Under the pieces are notes generated by a model. That model made no database searches. It was not told the DNA's origin and worked only from the letters and a program-made list of their open reading frames with translations. Below, in pieces: positions 507 to 10,152 of a stretch of 10,152 nt of DNA (position 1 is the stretch's first letter; every line of letters begins with the position of its first letter). Source of the DNA: a virus. Taxonomy: Duplodnaviria; Heunggongvirae; Uroviricota; Caudoviricetes. The stretch is from IMG/VR virus record IMGVR_UViG_2534681939_000019. One strand, given 5' to 3'. A program made the position numbers and the translations under genes.

Positions 507-721
507 ATGTACCAGATGGAAAAAATCACAACGGGTGTGTCATACACCACGTCAGCGTGGGGACGGGATACTGGTTACTGCAGCTGCTGGACAAAGTCTC
601 TCCGTCCCAGTGGGTGGCGATAGGTGTGCTGGGGAGTCTGCTGTTTGGGCTGCTGACATATCTGACGAACCTGTATTTCAAGATTAAAGAAGACCGGCGT
701 AAGGCGGCGCGGGGAGAGTAA
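507..721 (+). pseudogene. S: Class II pinholin S (phage 21 S-like), reading frame disrupted by an apparent 1-bp deletion near 557
   Basis: From ATG 507 the frame gives [17 protein letters not shown] then runs to TAG 621-623; the -1 frame from 557 gives [54 protein letters not shown] ending TAA 719-721. Joined, this matches the phage 21 pinholin as recalled from memory. Dual-start MYQM motif. Confidence 0.8.
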
Positions 722-722
722 A

Positions 723-1070
723 GTGATGAAGAAAAAATACGAACTGGTTGTTAAAGGGATAAATAATTACCCGGATAAGATTACTGTTACTGTGGCACTG
801 GAAATTGGTGGGTATCCGTCACTGTTGTTGCCAGATGTGGCGATTAGTCTTGACCGTACTGAAGGTGCCACGCTGGAGTTTTACGAAGCTGAGGCGAAAA
901 AGCAGGCGAAGCAGTTTTTCATGGATGTTGCTGCCGGGTTATGTGAAGGGGATGGTCCGTTACCGGAAAAGCGTCCCGTAATTTTAGAGGCGCAGGATGT
1001 GTTGATAACCTACAGAGGAAAACTACCGGGAATAATTACGGGTTCTCTGAAGACTCCACCGCTGGCCTGA
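723..1070 (+). CDS. Hypothetical protein between holin and endolysin; possibly like the small DUF1327/YdfR-type proteins found at this position in lambdoid prophages
   Basis: 115-aa ORF with no hydrophobic segments; GTG 723 / ATG 726 immediately after the holin stop, with GGGGAGAG about 7 nt upstream of ATG 726. Family assignment is from memory and unverified. Confidence 0.55.
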   Translation: MMKKKYELVVKGINNYPDKITVTVALEIGGYPSLLLPDVAISLDRTEGATLEFYEAEAKKQAKQFFMDVAAGLCEGDGPLPEKRPVILEAQDVLITYRGKLPGIITGSLKTPPLA

Positions 1071-1120
1071 AGACTTAACATATCCAGGGATTTGAAATCG
1101 ATAAACCCTGATAAATATCC

Positions 1121-1655
1121 ATGAACGCAAAAATCAGATACGGCCTGTCGGCTGCCGTTCTGGCGCTGATTGCCGCAGGTGCGTCTGCGCCTGAAATCCT
1201 CGACCAGTTTCTGGATGAAAAGGAAGGTAACCACACCACAGCATACCGTGATGGTGCGGGTATCTGGACCATCTGCCGTGGAGCCACCCGGGTGGATGGT
1301 AAGCCTGTTATTCCTGGCATGAAGCTGTCGAAGGAAAAATGCGACCGGGTTAACGCCATTGAGCGTGATAAGGCGCTGGCATGGGTGGAGAAAAACATCA
1401 GAGTGCCACTGACCGAACCCCAGAAAGCGGGGATTGCGTCATTCTGTCCGTACAACATTGGCCCCGGTAAGTGTTTCCCGTCGACGTTTTACAGACGGAT
1501 TAATGCAGGAGATCGAAAAGGTGCCTGCGAAGCTATTACGCTGGTGGATTAAGGACGGTGGCAGGGACTGCCGTATTCGCTCAAATAACTGTTACGGTCA
1601 GGTATCCCGTCGTGACCAGGAGAGCGCGCTGGCGTGCTGGGGAATCGACAGATAA
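1121..1655 (+). pseudogene. R: SAR endolysin R (phage 21 R-like lysozyme), reading frame disrupted near 1538
   Basis: N-terminal signal-anchor-release segment (GLSAAVLALIAAGASA) then lysozyme core through GDRKGACEAI, after which this frame stops at 1550-1552 (TLVD*). The +1 frame continues RWWIKDGGRDCRIRSNNCYGQVSRRDQESALACWGIDR to TAA 1653-1655, matching the expected endolysin C-terminus. Confidence 0.8.
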
Positions 1656-1794
1656 GCAGAATATTTTGCTGAAAAATGAGGTTTGCTTACATGGATGGAT
1701 AACACGAAATCCTGCAAATTGGCAAAATGTAAGTGAATAAAGTCAAAACAGTTGTTTAACACTCAGGCACCGTAATGATGCCTTTGTCATTTCT

Positions 1795-1816
1795 GCGCAT
1801 CTCACGCGCATCTCAC
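1795..1816. repeat. Perfect tandem direct repeat, 2 x 11 bp (GCGCATCTCAC), in the intergenic region upstream of the antirepressor-like gene
   Basis: GCGCATCTCAC at 1795-1805 is repeated exactly at 1806-1816; lies about 110 bp upstream of ATG 1926. Confidence 0.6.
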
Positions 1817-1925
1817 AACACAGAACCTTTCAGGATGACCCTTGAGGATACCGGTTTGGCTGTCGGTGCCTTTCTGTGGGCTGGATTCCTGTGAGACAAG
1901 GTTCATCACTAAAAGGAAATAACCG

Positions 1926-2498
1926 ATGAATATGATGGCCGTGCCGTTTCACGGCAACTCTCTTTATGTAGTTAACCATAATGGCGAACCATACGTTCCC
2001 ATGAAACCTGTCGTTGCGGGGATGGGGCTGGCCTGGCAATCACAGTTGGCTAAGTTAAGACAGCGTTTTGCGTCAACTATAACGGAAATCGTTATGGTTG
2101 CTGAGGATGGGAAACAACGCAATATGGTGTCCATGCCACTTCGAAAACTTGCCGGCTGGCTACAAACCATTAATCCCAACAAAGTAAAACCCGAAATCCG
2201 CGATAAGGTCATCCGGTATCAGGAAGAGTGCGACGATGTTCTTTACGAGTACTGGACGAAGGGTTTTGTCGTTAATCCCCGTAAAATGAGCGTGATGGAA
2301 GAACTCAACCAGGCTTGTGCTGACATGAAACGGGATAAAAACATTGCCAGTGTGTTTGCTACCGGGCTGAATGAGTGGAAACAGGTTAAAGCCGCGCAAT
2401 GTATCAAAAAATCCGTAACGCTGGTAAATGAAGCGAATATGCTGATTGATTTTGTCCTGGCTGATACAGGCAAAGGGAAAATAACAAAGGCGGATTGA
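1926..2498 (+). CDS. Phage antirepressor-like protein (P22 Ant N-terminal-domain type)
   Basis: 190-aa ORF with SD AAGGAAAT 5 nt before the ATG; N-terminus VPFHGNSLYVVNHNGEPYVPMKPVVAGMGLAWQSQ ... PLRKLAGWLQTINPNKVKPEIRDKVIRYQEECDDVLYEYWTKG fits the antirepressor N-terminal domain pattern as recalled. Confidence 0.7.
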   Translation: MNMMAVPFHGNSLYVVNHNGEPYVPMKPVVAGMGLAWQSQLAKLRQRFASTITEIVMVAEDGKQRNMVSMPLRKLAGWLQTINPNKVKPEIRDKVIRYQEECDDVLYEYWTKGFVVNPRKMSVMEELNQACADMKRDKNIASVFATGLNEWKQVKAAQCIKKSVTLVNEANMLIDFVLADTGKGKITKAD

Positions 2499-2620
2499 TG
2501 GGGTGGCTAATGATATCAGATAAACTCATAACGCTGGTGAAGAGCCTCTGTGTACTTGTCGGCATTTCATTTTTAGTCATGCTGGTTGCCATTTTCTTTC
2601 CACCGCCTGGCGAGTCCTGA
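2498..2620 (+). CDS. Candidate small single-pass membrane protein (40 aa), translationally coupled to the antirepressor-like gene
   Basis: ATG 2498 overlaps the upstream TGA (ATGA); alternative ATG at 2510 in the same frame. Product MGWLMISDKLITLVKSLCVLVGISFLVMLVAIFFPPPGES has one hydrophobic helix; too short for the ORF track. Confidence 0.3.
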   Translation: MGWLMISDKLITLVKSLCVLVGISFLVMLVAIFFPPPGES

Positions 2621-2650
2621 CGTTATCGGGACTGGTGGGGTGAAAGAGAG

Positions 2651-3122
2651 ATGAACCGTGTTCTGTGTGTGGTGATTATTGTCATGGCGGTTGGACTGTG
2701 GTGCGCTGTGGCCTGGGCAACAAACCATTACCGTGACTACGCGCTCACCTACAAAGCGCAGCGCGATAAAAAAGCCAGAGAGACTGGAACAGGCGAATGC
2801 CACCATTACTGACATGCAGGTGCGCCAGCGTGATGTTGCTGCGCTCGATGCAAAATACTCGAGGGAATTAGCCGATGCGAGAGCTGAAAATGAAACTCTG
2901 CGTGCTGATGTTGCCGCTGGTCGTAAGCGCCTGCGGATCAACGCCACCTGCCCCGGTACCGTGCGTGAAGCCACCGGCACCTCCGGCGTGGGCAATGATG
3001 CCGCCGTCGAACTCTCTCCGGTTGCTGGACGAAACGTTCTCGGTATCAGAGACGGAATCATCAGCGACCAGGCAGCATTGAGAATGCTTCAGGAATATAT
3101 CCGCACTCAGTGTATTAACTAG
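2651..3122 (+). pseudogene. Rz: Rz i-spanin, reading frame disrupted by an apparent 1-bp insertion near 2783
   Basis: ATG 2651 gives MNRVLCVVIIVMAVGLWCAVAWATNHYRDYALTYKAQRDKKARE (transmembrane N-terminus, lambda Rz-like) then stops at 2810-2812. The +1 frame continues LEQANATITDMQVRQRDVAALDAKYSRELADARAENETLRADVAAGRKRL...EYIRTQCIN to TAG 3120-3122, matching lambda Rz. Confidence 0.8.
2875..3081 (+). CDS. Rz1: Rz1 o-spanin lipoprotein, embedded in the +1 frame of Rz
   Basis: MRELKMKLCVLMLPLVVSACGSTPPAPVPCVKPPAPPAWAMMPP: lipobox LVVSAC and proline-rich segment as in lambda Rz1; lies wholly inside Rz in the +1 frame. Confidence 0.7.
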   Translation: MRELKMKLCVLMLPLVVSACGSTPPAPVPCVKPPAPPAWAMMPPSNSLRLLDETFSVSETESSATRQH

Positions 3123-3146
3123 TATTTTTGTTATTCGGAGAATGCA

Positions 3147-3370
3147 TGAAGAAATTATTGGTAACCGTAAAGCCTTTTCAGGGAACAATTCCGTTCCGTA
3201 TTTTGCAGCGTGGTCGTGTTCTTGTTGAAGGTTCGTTCAGTGGTAAATGTACGCAATTACACTCCAGGACCTTTCAGGTGAATGCCACGAATGAAGAGCT
3301 AACCGTTGAGTGTACGATGAATGCCGCTAAATGCCGCATGGTATCCGCTGCATTACAGCCAGTGTGTTGA
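3147..3370 (+). CDS. Hypothetical small protein (74 aa)
   Basis: ATG 3147 (MKKLLVTVKPFQG...) has GGAGAA 6 nt upstream; it is the internal start of track ORF 3128..3370. No motif recognised and no signal peptide, so it is not Bor-like. Confidence 0.4.
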
Positions 3371-3726
3371 GCGACCTTATTATTCATGCGCGGTATTGTC
3401 GCCGTATTCCTGCATTAACAGAGACCGCAGCCCGACCGGGAGAATCCTCTGCGCGAGTGTGCGGGGATAATCAAAAACGATACACACCGGGGTTTACCGC
3501 GTTAACGGAGCGCGGCGTTGTCCCCTCATGGTCGCTGGTCCGGTGCGATGGTGGAAGAAGCCGGATGTTTATCACTATTAATTGATAACACAGAAATGGA
3601 TTCATTGGTTTTCAGCACGTTTTTGTATTCGTATTATTGAACATCTGTTTATTTTACTTTTAACATATTGATAATAAAAAGAGCTGTAAATCATTAGATG
3701 AGTCGATTTTGTCCGGGGAAGTTCAA

Positions 3727-3879
3727 ATGGATTTTATGCTGACGGTTTCTGGTGTGGTTATCCTGTCCATTGCTTATACTGCAGATAAATATGGCTGCCA
3801 TTTGTTATCACGTATTGGCGCTTATTGCTCGTTGATGCTGATTTCCTCGTCGCTTTTTTTGAGTAAGTTATATTAATTA
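3727..3879 (+). CDS. Candidate small hydrophobic protein (49 aa) inside an AT-rich island
   Basis: ATG 3727 with GGGGAAG 5 nt upstream; product MDFMLTVSGVVILSIAYTADKYGCHLLSRIGAYCSLMLISSSLFLSKLY has two hydrophobic stretches. Short and AT-rich, so it could be spurious. Confidence 0.25.
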
Positions 3880-4001
3880 TAACAAATAATTTTCTGTGTT
3901 TTTTCAGGCTATCCCGTCAGACGGGAAGCCTGTACTGCCGGGGGACGAATGGAAAACTGATGTGTCCGGTAAACTGTGTGTTCTTGTGAACACCATGTTA
4001 C

Positions 4002-4184
4002 TTAATTAATGTAATTCATACCCGAACGCTCTGTTGACAGCCTTCTTCTGCAGGCTTCAATAACCCACGCTGAAAAGTTACCGGAACCTTTATGTTCAAG
4101 GGCGATATTGATCTGTTCAATCATGTGATTGGGGAAACGGATATTGCGGATTGTGGTTCTGCGGGTCCGGTTTTTCGATGACAT
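4002..4184 (-). CDS. Small ribbon-helix-helix-like DNA-binding protein (YlcI/YnfO DUF3950-like)
   Basis: 60-aa minus-strand ORF MSSKNRTRRTTIRNIRFPNHMIEQINIALEHKGSGNFSAWVIEACRRRL...: basic N-terminus, a beta-strand-like RNIRF, then two helices. SD AGAGGAAAG lies just upstream of the ATG on the minus strand. Resemblance to K-12 prophage YlcI/YnfO is from memory. Confidence 0.6.
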   Translation of the reverse strand: MSSKNRTRRTTIRNIRFPNHMIEQINIALEHKGSGNFSAWVIEACRRRLSTERSGMNYIN

Positions 4185-4225
4185 TTTCTTTCCTCTGGTG
4201 ACAAGCTATATGGCGAGGATTTTAC

Positions 4226-4768
4226 ATGGCTGTGCTTCGTACGTTACCGGGCAGAATCAAAACTCTGAACACCCGGCGGATAAATGTCCTGAGGGGGGAA
4301 CAGCGTCGTGTCAGTGGCAGTGCCCGGGTTTCCCTCAAACGTCGTATCTGGCGGAGGGATGCCGGACACTGTTGTCTCTGTAGACGCGTGGTTGACCTTC
4401 GTGACAGTGAACTCGATCACCGCATTGCACTTCAGTTCGGTGGTGGTAATGAGGAGACGAACCTCTGGACCCTCTGTACTGAATGCCATCGCCAGAAGTC
4501 AGCGAGTGAAGCGGCGAGTGGTATGCCTGATCCGACGTTGCCTGAGCTTCCTGATGGCACGCTCAGGGCCGACGGAATCACTCGGCCTGTGACCACGACC
4601 CGGGGGGGGATCATCCGGCGAAAAAAAACGATCGCCCTGGACACCGCGCCCCCTCTCACGCAGAGAAAAAATTCCCGTTTCAGGGCAGTTAACATGTTAA
4701 CTGGCTGCCCGGGCATTTTTGCGGTTTTTATCTTTATTATTCAGTTTGTTGTGCGGAAAAAATGTTAA
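4226..4768 (+). CDS. HNH endonuclease (terminase-associated, HK97 gp74-like) with an unusually long C-terminal tail
   Basis: HNH motif HCCLCRRVVDLRDSELDHRIALQFGGGNEETNLWTLCTECHRQK; SD GAGGA 7 nt before ATG 4226; directly upstream of terS. The last 60-80 codons run through G8 and A8 homopolymers and into the palindrome array, so the true stop is uncertain. Confidence 0.75.
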   Translation: MAVLRTLPGRIKTLNTRRINVLRGEQRRVSGSARVSLKRRIWRRDAGHCCLCRRVVDLRDSELDHRIALQFGGGNEETNLWTLCTECHRQKSASEAASGMPDPTLPELPDGTLRADGITRPVTTTRGGIIRRKKTIALDTAPPLTQRKNSRFRAVNMLTGCPGIFAVFIFIIQFVVRKKC

Positions 4769-4814
4769 CAGGCTTTTTCAGCAAATGTTAACCAGGCAGC
4801 AGTTAACATTTGCG
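4683..4814. repeat. Array of GTTAAC-containing inverted repeats between HNH and terS; candidate cos / terminase recognition region
   Basis: Perfect 18-bp palindrome CAGTTAACATGTTAACTG at 4686-4703; AATGTTAACA at 4761-4770; 12-bp inverted arms GCAAATGTTAAC (4781-4792) and GTTAACATTTGC (4802-4813) around a 9-bp spacer. Five copies of ATGTTAAC-like half-sites lie within about 130 bp. Confidence 0.55.
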
Positions 4815-4883
4815 GCATGAGACGCCGGGAAAAATGGGCTGAACCATACCCGGCTGAGTGCGTTCTGGACCCGGGAGGAGGCT

Positions 4884-5447
4884 GTGCTGACAACGCAAAA
4901 ACGAAAATTTGCGCTGGCGCTCATGTCCGGGAAAAACAAAACAGCGTCAGCCATTGCCGCCGGTTATTCGGCGAAGACCGCCAGGGTTAAAGGCTCGCAG
5001 CTGGCAAAAGATCCTGAGGTGCTTGCGTTTATAGCCCGTAAACAATGCGAGACGGTGGAGGTGGATGAGGTTCCTGTTTACCGGCAGAAAAAATCAGAGC
5101 AGGAGGATAAACCCCGTCGCCGTGAGGCGGCTGCAATACCACAGCCGGACGAAAACAATCTGGAGATGCCACCGTCCGCGGTGATGTCTCCTGGTATTGA
5201 ATATATGGAGGATGGTCTTCCCGATCCGGTGAAAGCCATGGGGCGGATCCTGGTGGAAAACCTCTGCATTGATCCGAAACTGGCACTGGATGCGGCCTGG
5301 CGTCTGGCGCAGTTCACGCACCATAAAAAAGGGGATACCGGGAAAAAATCGGCAAAAGGTGATGCCGCGAAAAAAGCGGCTAACCGTTTTGCGGTGCCAC
5401 CGCCACCCCGACTGGTGGTGAATAACGATAATGAGGGCAACGGATGA
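4884..5447 (+). CDS. terS: Terminase small subunit (Terminase_2-like, N-terminal HTH)
   Basis: MLTTQKRKFALALMSGKNKTASAIAAGYSAKTARVKGSQLAKDPEVLAFI fits the TerS HTH pattern (AGYS.KTA...GS.L). GTG 4884 follows GGGAGGAGG (4873-4881); an in-frame ATG at 4833 is an alternative start without a good SD. Stop overlaps the terL start (ATGA at 5444-5447). Confidence 0.8.
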   Translation: MLTTQKRKFALALMSGKNKTASAIAAGYSAKTARVKGSQLAKDPEVLAFIARKQCETVEVDEVPVYRQKKSEQEDKPRRREAAAIPQPDENNLEMPPSAVMSPGIEYMEDGLPDPVKAMGRILVENLCIDPKLALDAAWRLAQFTHHKKGDTGKKSAKGDAAKKAANRFAVPPPPRLVVNNDNEGNG

Positions 5448-7105
5448 TACCTGTATGGAGCACAGCCTGCCCGGACTGGGCAGAGCGCCTGAAAAAGGGG
5501 CTGTCGATTATTCCGGATCCGATTTATCCGGACGAGGCCGCACATGCCCTGGCGATTTTTAAACAACTGCGGATTGTGGATGCACCTGGTAGCCCTACGT
5601 TCGGGGAGTCCTGTGCACCGTGGGTGTTTGACCTGGTGGCGGCCCTGTTTGGCTCCTACGATGCGCAGACCGGTGTACGCCATATCAAGGAAGTTTTTAT
5701 CCTTATCCCCAAGAAAAACAGCAAGTCCACGCTGGCCGCGGGGATCATGATGACTGCACTGTTACTGAACTGGCGGCAGGCGGCGGGTTACACGATTCTG
5801 GCCCCGACTGTGGAGGTGGCGGCCAACGCCTTCAACCCTGCCCGGGATATGGTACGACGGGACGATGATCTGGATGACCTCTGCCAGGTACAGACCCATA
5901 TCCGGACCATCACCCACCGGGTGACGGACACCACCCTGAAGGTGGTGGCAGCCGATCCGAATACGGTGTCCGGTATCAAGTCCGTGGGTACGCTGATTGA
6001 TGAGTTGTGGCTGTTTGGCAAGCAGTGCAAGGCGGAGGACATGTTACGTGAAGCCATAGGCGGCCTTGCCTCCCGCCCGGAAGGGTTTGTGGTGTATACG
6101 ACCACCCAGTCGAATGAACCGCCCGCCGGGGTGTTCAGACAGAAACTGCAGTACGCCCGGGATGTGCGCGACGGCAAAATTCATGATCCGCACTTTCTGC
6201 CGGTGATATTTGAACACCCTCCTGAAATGGTGGAAAGCGGGGCTAACCTGCTGATGGAAAACCTCGCCATGGTCAATCCGAATCTCGGCTATTCAGTGGA
6301 TGAGGCCTTTCTGTACCGGGAGTACCGTAAAGCCCGGGAAGCCGGTGAAGAGACATTCCGGGGGTTCATGTCAAAACACGCCAATGTGGAAATTGGTCTT
6401 GCCCTGCGCTCTGACCGCTGGGCGGGGGCTGATTTCTGGGAAGAGCAGGGCCGTTGTATCAGCCTGGACGATATCCTGCGTCGTGCTGATGTGGTGACGG
6501 TGGGGATTGACGGCGGAGGGCTGGATGATCTGCTGGGGATGTATGTGATTGGGCGTGACCGGGAGACCCGCGAATGGCTGGGCTGGGGCCATGCCTGGGC
6601 GCATGGAACCGCGGTGGTCAGACGGAAGAGTGAGGCATCCCGTTTTCAGGATTTTGTGGCCTGTGGAGACATGACGATTGTCCGTCGGGTCGGGGATGAC
6701 ACGGCGGAAGTGGCGGAATATGTGCGTCGCATTCATGAGGCTGAGTTACTGGACCATATCGGTATTGACCCGTCAGGTGTGGGGCAGATTCTGGATTCAC
6801 TGGCGGAAGCCGGGATCCCCGACGGAATTGTTGTGGGGATAAGCCAGGGCTGGAAGCTGGGCGGGGCCATTAAAACCACCGAGCGCAAACTGGCTGAGGG
6901 AGTACTGGTGCATGGTGGTCAGCCACTGATGGCCTGGTGCGTTGGCAATGCCCGGGTGGAGCCTAAAGGTAACGCTATCCTTATTACCAAACAGGCCAGC
7001 GGACGGGGGAAAATTGACCCGCTGATGGCGCTCTTCAATGCGGTCTCCCTGATGTCCCTTAACCCGGAACCGAAAAAGAAAGAATATGCGGTTTTTTTCA
7101 TATAA
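5444..7105 (+). CDS. terL: Terminase large subunit (ATPase plus nuclease)
   Basis: 553-aa ORF; P-loop-like LIPKKNSKST near the N-terminus, acidic patches in the ATPase region, C-terminal nuclease region with VTVGIDGGG and DPSG. Translationally coupled to terS. Confidence 0.9.
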   Translation: MIPVWSTACPDWAERLKKGLSIIPDPIYPDEAAHALAIFKQLRIVDAPGSPTFGESCAPWVFDLVAALFGSYDAQTGVRHIKEVFILIPKKNSKSTLAAGIMMTALLLNWRQAAGYTILAPTVEVAANAFNPARDMVRRDDDLDDLCQVQTHIRTITHRVTDTTLKVVAADPNTVSGIKSVGTLIDELWLFGKQCKAEDMLREAIGGLASRPEGFVVYTTTQSNEPPAGVFRQKLQYARDVRDGKIHDPHFLPVIFEHPPEMVESGANLLMENLAMVNPNLGYSVDEAFLYREYRKAREAGEETFRGFMSKHANVEIGLALRSDRWAGADFWEEQGRCISLDDILRRADVVTVGIDGGGLDDLLGMYVIGRDRETREWLGWGHAWAHGTAVVRRKSEASRFQDFVACGDMTIVRRVGDDTAEVAEYVRRIHEAELLDHIGIDPSGVGQILDSLAEAGIPDGIVVGISQGWKLGGAIKTTERKLAEGVLVHGGQPLMAWCVGNARVEPKGNAILITKQASGRGKIDPLMALFNAVSLMSLNPEPKKKEYAVFFI

Positions 7106-7130
7106 CCCTGTTCACACTGTAACCATCACG

Positions 7131-7155
7131 AACCGCTCCGGCGGTTTTTTATTTT
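7131..7155 (+). terminator. Small hairpin plus U-tract between terL and the protease gene (possible attenuator)
   Basis: AACCGC (7131-7136), loop TCCG, GCGGTT (7141-7146), then TTTTATTTT; overlaps the protease SD AGGAGG (7157-7162). Confidence 0.35.
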
Positions 7156-7167
7156 CAGGAGGCTGAT

Positions 7168-7746
7168 GTGACTCTTAAACGGGCCTGTTCCCTGCTGACG
7201 GTGAAATCCTTCAGCGAGGATGAACGGGTGATCACCGGGATTGCGTCAACGCCTTCTCCGGATCGGGATGGTGACATCCTGGAGCCGGAGGGGGCGGAGT
7301 TTGGCTGTGCGATCCCGTTTCTCTGGCAGCATGACTATTCCCGTCCGGTGGGCCAGTGTACGGTACGCCGGGTCAGTGAAGGTCTGGAAATCACGGCAAC
7401 ACTGGTGAAGCCCGTACCGGATATGCCGTCGCAACTGGCTGCCCGGCTGGATGAGGCCTGGGCGGCCATTAAGACCGGGCTGGTCAGGGGGCTGTCCGTG
7501 GGCTTCCGTCCCCATGAATACACCTCTCTGGACGGAGGCGGACTGCATTTTCTGCGCTGGGAACTGATGGAGGTGTCTGCCGTCACCGTGCCCGCGAATG
7601 CGGAATGCACCATCCGGACCATTAAATCTTACGACCGCCCGTTTTCTGCCGCGTCCGGCAACCGGAAACCGGTGGTGAAAATCGCATCTTCTGCCGGCGC
7701 TGCGGCACAGTCAACAACCGCTTTTCATAAGGAAAAGACAGAATGA
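7168..7746 (+). CDS. HK97-family prohead protease (peptidase S78/U35)
   Basis: GTG 7168 with AGGAGG 5 nt upstream; VITGIASTPSPDRDGDILEPEG ... FLWQHD ... GLSVGFRPHEY ... MEVSAVTVPANAECTI is the typical motif order of the HK97 protease family. Confidence 0.85.
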   Translation: MTLKRACSLLTVKSFSEDERVITGIASTPSPDRDGDILEPEGAEFGCAIPFLWQHDYSRPVGQCTVRRVSEGLEITATLVKPVPDMPSQLAARLDEAWAAIKTGLVRGLSVGFRPHEYTSLDGGGLHFLRWELMEVSAVTVPANAECTIRTIKSYDRPFSAASGNRKPVVKIASSAGAAAQSTTAFHKEKTE

Positions 7747-7812
7747 ATATTGGCGAACAGATAAAAGTTTTGAAACAAGCGTGCGGCGCTGGCAGCCTCC
7801 CTTGAGGAGGTC

Positions 7813-9102
7813 ATGACCAAAGCCGCAGAGGAAGGGCGCACGCTGGATGTGGAGGAGGAAGAGCATTACGACAACACCGCAGCGGAAATCCGTCAGGTGG
7901 ATGCGCACCTGAAGCGCCTGCGTGAACTGGAAGCCGGTAAGGCCGCCACGGCGCAGCCGGTGAAACAGGCCGGTAACGGGAATGTGGCCGCGGTGGCTTC
8001 TGCGCCGGTGATCCGTGTGGAGCAGAAACTGGATAAGGGGATTGGCTTCGCCCGCTTTGCCAAATCGCTGGCTGCGGCTAAAGGCGTCCGATCTGAAGCC
8101 CTGGAAGTGGCCCGTCGTCAGTATCCGGATGACAGTCGTCTGCATCATGTCCTGAAATCGGCAGTGGGCGCAGGGACCACCACGGATCCACAGTGGGCAG
8201 GCAGCCTGTCTGAATATCAGGAATACGCACAGGACTTTATTGATTACCTGCGTCCGCAGACCATTATCGGGCGATTTGGTCAGGGCGGGATCCCTGCACT
8301 TCGTCAGGTGCCATTCAATATCCGCGTGCACGCCCAGGTGTCCGGCGGTGCTGCCGGCTGGGTGGGGGAGGGTAAGGCAAAACCCCTGACGAAGTTTGAT
8401 TTTGAATCCATCACCTTCAGTCATGCGAAGGTGTCGGCCATTGCGGTACTGACGGAAGAACTGATCCGCTTTTCCAGTCCGGCAGCTGATGCACTGGTCC
8501 GTAATGCGCTGGCAGAAGCGGTGGTGGCGCGTCTGGACACAGACTTTGTGGACCCGAAAAAAGCTGCAGTGGCAGATGTCTCCCCGGCGTCCATCACCCA
8601 TGATGTGAAGGGCACGGCATCAACCGGTAACCCGGATGCGGATGCCGAGGCCGCGTTTGGCCAGTTTGTGACGGCAAATCTGCAGCCCACCGGTGCTGTC
8701 TGGCTGATGTCCAGCACCAATGCCCTGGCACTGTCCATGCGTAAAAATGCGCTGGGTCAGAAGGAATATCCGGACATGACCCTGCTGGGCGGGATCTTTC
8801 AGGGGCTTCCGGTGATTGTCTCCCAGTATGTGGGTGACCAGCTGGTGCTGGTGAATGCCCCGGATATTTATCTGGCGGATGACGGCGGCGTGGCAGTGGA
8901 TATGTCCCGCGAAGCATCACTGGAAATGCAGTCTGAGCCGACCGGCGACAGTACCACGCCGTCCCCGGTGGAGCTGGTTTCCATGTTCCAGACAGGCAGC
9001 GTGGCCATCCGTGCGGAGCGCTGGATCAACTGGCGTCGTCGCCGTACTGCGGCGGTGGCGGTGATCACCGGAGTGAACTACGGCAGTGCGTCCGGCGGCT
9101 GA
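7813..9102 (+). CDS. HK97-fold major capsid protein; the true N-terminus probably starts at ATG 7743 in another frame (apparent frameshift)
   Basis: 429-aa ORF with a coiled-coil-like N-terminal delta region (EIRQVDAHLKRLRELEAG) and Gly/Ala-rich capsid body, placed directly after the protease. ATG 7743 overlaps the protease stop (ATGA) and encodes MNIGEQIKVLKQ before a frame change near 7773-7776. Confidence 0.85.
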   Translation: MTKAAEEGRTLDVEEEEHYDNTAAEIRQVDAHLKRLRELEAGKAATAQPVKQAGNGNVAAVASAPVIRVEQKLDKGIGFARFAKSLAAAKGVRSEALEVARRQYPDDSRLHHVLKSAVGAGTTTDPQWAGSLSEYQEYAQDFIDYLRPQTIIGRFGQGGIPALRQVPFNIRVHAQVSGGAAGWVGEGKAKPLTKFDFESITFSHAKVSAIAVLTEELIRFSSPAADALVRNALAEAVVARLDTDFVDPKKAAVADVSPASITHDVKGTASTGNPDADAEAAFGQFVTANLQPTGAVWLMSSTNALALSMRKNALGQKEYPDMTLLGGIFQGLPVIVSQYVGDQLVLVNAPDIYLADDGGVAVDMSREASLEMQSEPTGDSTTPSPVELVSMFQTGSVAIRAERWINWRRRRTAAVAVITGVNYGSASGG

Positions 9103-9116
9103 GTCTGATAAGGAGG

Positions 9117-9138
9117 ACGGGAGGCGTGCGCCTCCCGT
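9117..9138 (+). other. GC-rich 22-bp palindrome / stem-loop immediately downstream of the major capsid gene
   Basis: ACGGGAGGCG (9117-9126) and CGCCTCCCGT (9129-9138) are perfect reverse complements around a 2-nt centre; no U-tract follows. Confidence 0.45.
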
Positions 9139-9146
9139 AACAGGTT

Positions 9147-9368
9147 ATGGCAAAGATCCGATATCTGCAGGGCACGCATGATGCCCGGCCCGGGGATATC
9201 CGGGATGTCGCACAGCCGTGTGCGGAGGTGCTGGTTCGCCTGAGGAAGGCGGAGTACATCACAGCGCGACGTCCGGCGGGTCAGAAAAAGAAACATGATG
9301 CGGAGCATAGCGAATGTGGAACTTTTTGCGACGAACCCGAAAAAACCAGAAATCAGGACGTGATGTAA
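9147..9368 (+). CDS. Hypothetical small protein (73 aa) between capsid and portal genes
   Basis: Track ORF MAKIRYLQGTHDARPGDIRDVAQPCAEVLVRLRKAEYI...; weak SD; overlaps the predicted portal start by about 55 nt, so it may be shorter or not real. Confidence 0.35.
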   Translation: MAKIRYLQGTHDARPGDIRDVAQPCAEVLVRLRKAEYITARRPAGQKKKHDAEHSECGTFCDEPEKTRNQDVM

Positions 9369-10152
9369 AAGAGGCGGGCTGGACCAGCCTGTTTCAGGCG
9401 GTGGCTGAGCCCTTTGCCGGCGCCTGGCAGCAGGGTGTGAAAGCCGATCCGGAAAGTGTCCTCTCCTTTCATGCGGTGTTTGCATGCATTTCGCTGATAT
9501 CCCAGGATATCGCCAAAATGCGGCTGCGTCTTATGCAGACGGATGCGCATGGGATACGCAGGGAAACGCGCCGGGGGGATATTGCCCGCCTCTGTCGTCG
9601 TCCCAACGCCCAGCAGAACCGCATCCAGTTTTTTGAACTGTGGCTGAACGCCAAACTGCGTCATGGCAATACGGTGGTGCTGAAAATCCGTAATGCCCGG
9701 GGGCAGATCAAAGAACTGCGTATTCTGGACTGGAGCCGGGTTGAACCTCTGGTGGCGGATGACGGCGAGGTGTTCTACCGCATCACACCGGACCGGAACT
9801 GCGGGATCACGGAGGCGGTGACGGTGCCTGCCAGGGAAGTGATCCACGACCGGTTTAACTGTTTTTTTCATCCGCTTATAGGACTGCCGCCGGTGTATGC
9901 CGCCGGGCTGGCGGCCACGCAGGGGCATCATATTCAGGAAAATTCGACGTCTTTTTTCAGAAATGGCGGCAGGCCGTCCGGGGTGATTGAGATCCCCGGC
10001 AGTATTACGGAAGAAAATGCGAAAAAACTGAAGAGCAACTGGGACAGCGGGTATACAGGCGAAAATGCGGGGAAAACGGCCATTCTGAGCAACGGGGCAA
10101 AATACAACCCCACGACGTTTTCACCTGTGGATGCGCAGACGGTGGAACAACT
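9314..10152 (+). CDS. Portal protein (HK97-family), 5' part; continues beyond the window end
   Basis: Frame is open from ATG 9314 to the window end with no stop: MWNFLRRTRKNQKSGRDVKEAGWTSLFQ ... SFHAVFACISLISQDIAKMRLRL ... FFRNGGRPSGVIEIPGSITEENAKKLKSNWDSGYTGENAGKTAILSNGAKYNPTTFSPVDAQTVEQ. The FRNGxRPSG and ENAGK blocks are characteristic of portal proteins. Confidence 0.85.
   Translation, partial: MWNFLRRTRKNQKSGRDVKEAGWTSLFQAVAEPFAGAWQQGVKADPESVLSFHAVFACISLISQDIAKMRLRLMQTDAHGIRRETRRGDIARLCRRPNAQQNRIQFFELWLNAKLRHGNTVVLKIRNARGQIKELRILDWSRVEPLVADDGEVFYRITPDRNCGITEAVTVPAREVIHDRFNCFFHPLIGLPPVYAAGLAATQGHHIQENSTSFFRNGGRPSGVIEIPGSITEENAKKLKSNWDSGYTGENAGKTAILSNGAKYNPTTFSPVDAQTVEQ

Follow-up and report, generated by a model that had tools for sequence, protein, structure and literature searches.

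The closest described systems to the lysis genes considered here are the endolysin R21 and pinholin S21 of phage 21, and the late region of Enterobacteria phage YYZ-2008. Structures of the phage 21 endolysin are represented by PDB entries 3HDE and 3HDF, the active and the inactive form of R21, respectively. In YYZ-2008, the lysozyme is gp45 (YP_002274181.1), and the genes run in the order holin, YdfR, lysozyme, Ant, Rz, HNH, terS. The window analyzed here, i.e., the whole 10,152-nt stretch of IMG/VR record IMGVR_UViG_2534681939_000019, has the same gene order, and its endolysin gene R is 98.5% identical in DNA to the YYZ-2008 lysozyme gene. The window carries the 3' end of a SASA esterase gene followed by holin, YdfR, lysozyme, Ant, a small ORF, Rz/Rz1, HNH, terS, terL, a protease-capsid fusion and portal. 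It covers the late region of a lambdoid prophage of the Stx-phage-like kind, to which YYZ-2008 also belongs. The cassette differs from that of phage 21 in having Ant placed between R and Rz. The separation of the endolysin gene from Rz/Rz1 by Ant (P22_AR_N) and a 147-nt ORF is common to all close relatives and is a known layout.

As deposited, R is interrupted, and the features that bear on the interruption are as follows (positions are those of the window).

1121-1655, plus strand: endolysin gene R (phage-21-type SAR lysozyme, GH24/PF00959), 535 nt as deposited versus 534 nt in every intact homologue.
1121-1552, plus strand: apparent truncated ORF of 143 aa, comprising 139 native residues followed by TLVD and a stop codon (from translation).
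1538, plus strand: spurious inserted A, the cause of the frameshift (from alignment; absent in the finished genome and in wider searches).
1539-1655, plus strand: 3'-terminal part of native R (38 codons and the stop codon), pushed into the next frame.

A sequence-only reading of the window had described R as split by a frame change near 1538, and our analysis of the deposited sequence bore this out. In translation, the ORF at 1121-1552 contains lysozyme residues up to ...KGACEAI, after which it reads TLVD and stops, while the conserved C-terminus of R (RWWIKDGGRDCRIRSNNCYGQVSRRDQESALACWGIDR) sits in the next frame, within the ORF at 1434-1655. The 139 endolysin-like N-terminal residues, the TLVD ending and the displacement of the conserved C-terminus to the +1 frame are therefore all as that reading had them. 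It was also right that the C-terminal part of the protein is lost; however, the number of residues lost is 38 (177 minus 139) and not the 40 it gave. A multiple alignment of R from the window with four relatives showed the change to be a single extra A at exactly 1538 (GCTATT[A]CGCTGG), flanked by T and C and outside any homopolymer. Intact R homologues from phages and E. coli genomes are 534 nt in length, and repaired R encodes 177 aa; when A1538 is removed, the result is the exact 177-aa allele known from 169 contigs. Hence the deposited sequence does contain the frame change, although in the organism itself such a frameshift is almost certainly absent.

The protein was characterized in its repaired form. 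On PF00959, repaired R scored 87.1 bits against a gathering cut-off of 22.3 and covered profile positions 2-125 of 125, whereas the deposited 143-aa product scored 72.1 bits and covered only positions 2-104 of 125. Residues 12-174 of repaired R aligned with the phage 21 R structures 3HDE and 3HDF (3HDE, E = 2.6e-17). E35, D44 and T50, as read from the translation, have the spacing E-8-D-5-T and align with the matching region of 3HDE. The N-terminal hydrophobic segment is rich in Ala, Gly and Ser (residues 7-23, YGLSAAVLALIAAGASA), fits a SAR domain by inspection and aligns with the SAR region of R21; the Pro that follows ASA in this segment counts against cleavage by signal peptidase. Upstream in the window, the repaired holin scored 112.6 bits on PF04971 ("Bacteriophage P21 holin S"). 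The full-length PF00959 match, the E-8-D-5-T spacing, the Ala/Gly/Ser-rich N-terminus and the upstream PF04971 gene all resemble the R21/pinholin S21 pair, and the structural alignment, the catalytic triad and the P21-type holin support the assignment of R to the phage 21 type that had been made from sequence. "R21-type SAR endolysin" appears to be a fair label for the predicted product. R is nonetheless a divergent relative of R21, matching it with 66 bits over ~160 residues, and close to its C-terminus it carries a short insert with Cys (RDCRIRSNNCYGQ) that R21 lacks.

The window is the entire contig AIFJ01000017.1 of assembly GCA_000249355.2, the proteins of which are named at NCBI as those of "Escherichia coli DEC3F". 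An exact-protein look-up across 153 billion gene positions found the 143-aa product on a single contig, AIFJ01000017.1, where it is deposited as EHU94471.1. The AIFJ accession corresponds to DEC 3F, strain 493/89 (PMC4959244). It is listed as 493-89/AIFJ00000000, a 454 draft in 93+1 contigs credited to Hazen et al. 2012, without an SRA run entry (PMC7175801 Suppl. Table S1). Strain 493/89 also has a finished genome, NZ_CP038412.1, which was the best match to the window as a whole; nine of its places matched R, and 12 matched parts of the window. Four paralogous late regions of this genome, at 2.566, 1.272, 5.103 and 2.283 Mb, were read base by base, and the remaining copies were covered by comparison of the best R match and by a 61-nt query spanning the junction. 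In all four copies R reads GCTATTCGCTGG and the extra A is absent; the motif of the inserted-A allele is GCTATTACGCTGG, and none of the four copies reads so. The best place for R in NZ_CP038412.1 is 99.8% identical to the window, with one gap as the sole difference, and lysozyme WP_000992092.1 of E. coli 493/89 is an R allele identical to that of the window save for the extra A. The holin, Ant, Rz, HNH and capsid genes are likewise intact in the finished genome, and every copy that covers a given site of a private indel in the window is unbroken at that site. These results do not support the proposal, made from the contig sequence, that the organism encodes a truncated endolysin. That proposal had named reads lacking the extra base near 1538 as the evidence that would count against it; sequence without the base was in effect provided by the independent finished genome, not by reads.

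The same 61-nt query matched 1,412 places in 629 complete E. coli genomes, none of them with the extra A. No record matched at ≥99% identity, and 573 records matched at 98.4%, which equals one gap. The exact junction 39-mer was absent from GTDB representative genomes and from IMG/VR. In exact-protein look-ups, four products of the contig (truncated R, variant Ant and the fragments of Rz and protease) occurred on AIFJ01000017.1 only, as compared with control proteins from the same window, i.e., the intact YdfR allele (859 contigs), terS (at least 1000) and repaired R (169). Neither the finished genome nor the 629 genomes supplied the independent confirmation of the frameshifting base that is expected of a genuine pseudogene. 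Instead, as is expected of an artifact, the variant was private to one assembly, and the independently made assembly of 493/89 contradicted it.

Short-read assemblies of such E. coli genomes fragment into many phage-related contigs (PMC7175801). A k-mer comparison of the window with the four real copies of strain 493/89 showed that positions 1-961 track the 2.566-Mb copy and that positions 942-6708, including R, track the 2.283-Mb copy. From 6.7 to 9.9 kb (the 3' end of terL, the capsid gene and the start of the portal gene), at least 26 switches between copies were required, and this part of the window is described by one further feature.

6700-9900, no strand assigned: stretch of blended consensus from at least four paralogous prophage copies of one genome (from k-mer comparison).

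Among 5,426 genomes, no close single source was found for this stretch: identity reached at most 98.3% for 6800-7720 and at most 98.5% for 7205-7545, with no exact match even over the 341 bp of the latter. The best matches to it were different prophages of 493/89 itself. Since no genome matches these stretches exactly and the best matches are different 493/89 prophages, the distal half is a blended consensus of paralogues.

The extra A in R is one of about 21 private single-base indels in the window, all at sites where the relatives agree among themselves. The features of the window outside R, with the indels that affect them, are the following.

507-721, plus strand: P21-type class II holin gene S, disrupted by a private deletion of one base (GG to G) directly after 556.
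723-1070, plus strand: YdfR/DUF1327 gene, intact (exact allele on 859 contigs).
1926-2498, plus strand: Ant antirepressor gene, a private variant of 190 aa with three private +1 insertions at 2398, 2411 and about 2418 (net +3).
2596-4008, no strand assigned: further private single-base indels, i.e., deletion of T at 2596, deletion of T within T8 at 3853, insertion of A at 3971, insertion of T at 3984 and insertion of A at 4008.
2651-3122, plus strand: Rz spanin gene, broken, with Rz1 embedded (ORF 2875-3081); private insertions at 2695, ~2713, ~2716 and 2783.
4226-4768, plus strand: HNH endonuclease ORF, lengthened (180 versus 121 aa); private insertions at 4583, 4596 and ~4604 (G7 to G8).
7144, no strand assigned: private deletion of T within T7.
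7168-9102, plus strand: prohead protease-major capsid fusion gene, split; private deletions at 7738, 7762 and ~7775, the first of which makes a TGA at 7744-7746.

Homopolymer length was changed by one in all seven deletions and in nine of the 14 insertions, while the other five insertions were single A or C bases outside homopolymers. A1538 itself is not a homopolymer change, contrary to most of its companion errors. With the 454 flow order T-A-C-G, the five non-homopolymer insertions all fit a null flow, which by our estimate would happen by chance about one time in four; the fit is thus compatible with 454 chemistry and is not significant. Compared with its true source copy (5.77 kb), window 942-6708 has 14 inserted and 2 deleted bases, 16 indels in all, along with 6 substitutions. 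All but one of these 22 differences fall in 1538-4604, and 942-1537 as well as terS and most of terL (4605-6605) are free of indels. Uniformly poor sequence quality was rejected as a description of the contig, the errors being packed into 1538-4604 and one group in the capsid gene. The substitutions relative to the source copy lie at window positions 2738, 3608, 3693, 3845, 4400 and 6606; these six are probably miscalls too, or bases from unsampled paralogues. A further candidate was that the indels mark sites of paralogue SNPs at which both alleles had been kept (ATT/ATA giving ATTA), and this was rejected for the four copies read, which agree with one another at every indel site. Five tight groups (2398-2418, 2695-2716, 3971-4008, 4583-4604 and 7738-7775) each consist of three same-sign single-base indels with a net change of +3 or -3, and one of them lies partly in non-coding DNA. 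Bursts of errors at single low-quality 454 read ends might account for these groups. Taken with the blended distal half, the window has both platform-type companion errors and a sequence that matches no single real locus, a combination expected of an artifact.

The broken holin was also followed beyond the window. A 54-aa holin fragment occurs on 35 contigs, and in six of the eight places examined it results from truncation at a contig edge. Among these places, the only other internal holin lesion was in the sister 454 draft DEC3E (AIFI01000030.1, ~base 393), where a private +1 insertion (A1 to A2) lies eight bases upstream of the DEC3F lesion. A shared, real holin deletion, as the 54-aa fragment on other contigs might have indicated, was rejected since most of these places are edge truncations and the DEC3E lesion is a different one. 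The DEC3E lesion suggests that the same class of error recurs in prophage contigs of that project.

We consider it highly probable (~95%) that A1538 is an error of 454 base calling or of the consensus, made in a 454-only draft on a poorly resolved multi-copy prophage contig. R is intact in the finished 493/89 genome, which makes the extra base an artifact and not biology, and the assembler failed to resolve the region because the genome holds several near-identical copies of it. In the sequence of events that we propose, the late region, being present in these near-identical copies, would have been beyond the assembler's resolution, and the contig would have been assembled from reads of several copies together with pyrosequencing-type single-base indels, A1538 among them. 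We infer that A1538 arose either from a false-positive A flow or from low coverage in a collapsed repeat. The real gene is an intact 177-aa phage-21-type SAR endolysin, and the cassette around it (pinholin S, YdfR, R, Ant and Rz/Rz1) is a standard one. In its 454-only origin and its predominance of ±1 homopolymer indels, the window resembles known cases of 454 homopolymer and null-flow errors and of collapsed repeat contigs; it also resembles collapsed multi-prophage contigs of O157 drafts in being short, consisting entirely of multi-copy prophage DNA and mixing at least four paralogues. However, it departs from standard 454 error models in two respects, i.e., the position of A1538 outside a homopolymer and the groups of three same-sign indels.

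The alternative that survives best, although we regard it as very unlikely, is that the lesions are real, the prophage of the DEC3F stock being in decay and defective in lysis, with genuine frameshifts in R, S, Rz and the capsid gene. Inactivating mutations are frequent in cryptic lambdoid prophages of O157-lineage E. coli, several lysis and morphogenesis genes of the window are affected together, and the neighboring portal gene is annotated as frameshifted even in finished genomes. Yet such lesions are absent from all four copies read in the finished 493/89 genome, all of the broken products are private to one contig, and that contig corresponds to no single real copy. The lesions themselves also argue against pseudogenization: the indels are of the homopolymer type that 454 sequencing would give, three of them lie in or beside non-coding DNA, and they outnumber substitutions by 16 to 6. 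So many indels and substitutions are not expected between two assemblies of one strain, and natural divergence would show the opposite of an indel-to-substitution ratio near 3:1. This alternative is thus already largely refuted. The draft and finished assemblies may stem from different laboratory stocks of 493/89, which leaves a stock-specific mutation a small probability. The more specific proposal, i.e., that the DEC3F stock, unlike that of the finished genome, carries a recently inactivated, lysis-defective prophage in which the endolysin gene and perhaps those for holin, Rz and capsid are frameshifted, is in our judgment somewhat less probable again.

Still less credence can be given to the converse, that the draft is correct and the finished PacBio-era genome is wrong, e.g., through over-polishing toward a paralogue. 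The A is lacking not only in the four copies but also in the three other closest genomes, in phage YYZ-2008 and at all 1,412 places in the 629 genomes. Long-read sequencing does produce indel errors, and polishing across repeats can copy between paralogues, but the version without the A restores all reading frames and widely shared exact alleles, which is implausible as the outcome of error at ~21 sites. Finally, a programmed +1 ribosomal frameshift or a functional two-piece endolysin at 1538 has a negligible chance of being correct: although both halves are open and overlap (ORFs 1121-1552 and 1434-1655) and the N-terminal piece retains the SAR segment and the E35/D44/T50 triad, the two-frame layout is found in no relative, so that nothing conserved speaks for it, GCT ATT ACG CTG has on inspection no known +1 motif (e.g., a slippery codon followed by a stop or rare codon), and the only contig with the layout is rich in errors.

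The R frameshift is therefore a property of the deposited sequence and not a feature of the organism, and the underlying R is an ordinary, intact R21-type endolysin. It follows that EHU94471.1, which stands in GenBank as a 143-aa "phage lysozyme family protein", is an artifact, as are the other broken products of AIFJ01000017.1 deposited there (holin, Rz, Ant, protease and capsid fragments). The contig could mislead counts of pseudogenized lysis genes, inference of prophage decay, and gene-model training that draws on drafts of multi-prophage E. coli from the 454 era. The value of the result lies in this warning about data quality rather than in biology; indeed, even if the frameshift were true, it would still be a routine prophage pseudogene.

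Two observations were made on genes at the distal end of the late region. The portal gene (window 9314-10152) is annotated as a frameshifted pseudogene in several finished genomes (three copies in 493/89 as well as FORC_042 and USDA5905), but the 2.283-Mb copy of 493/89 has an unbroken portal gene. In this same copy of NZ_CP038412.1, the protease-capsid fusion gene is 1926 nt in length versus 1938 nt in the other copies, and it diverges strongly from them downstream of the site that matches window ~7545.
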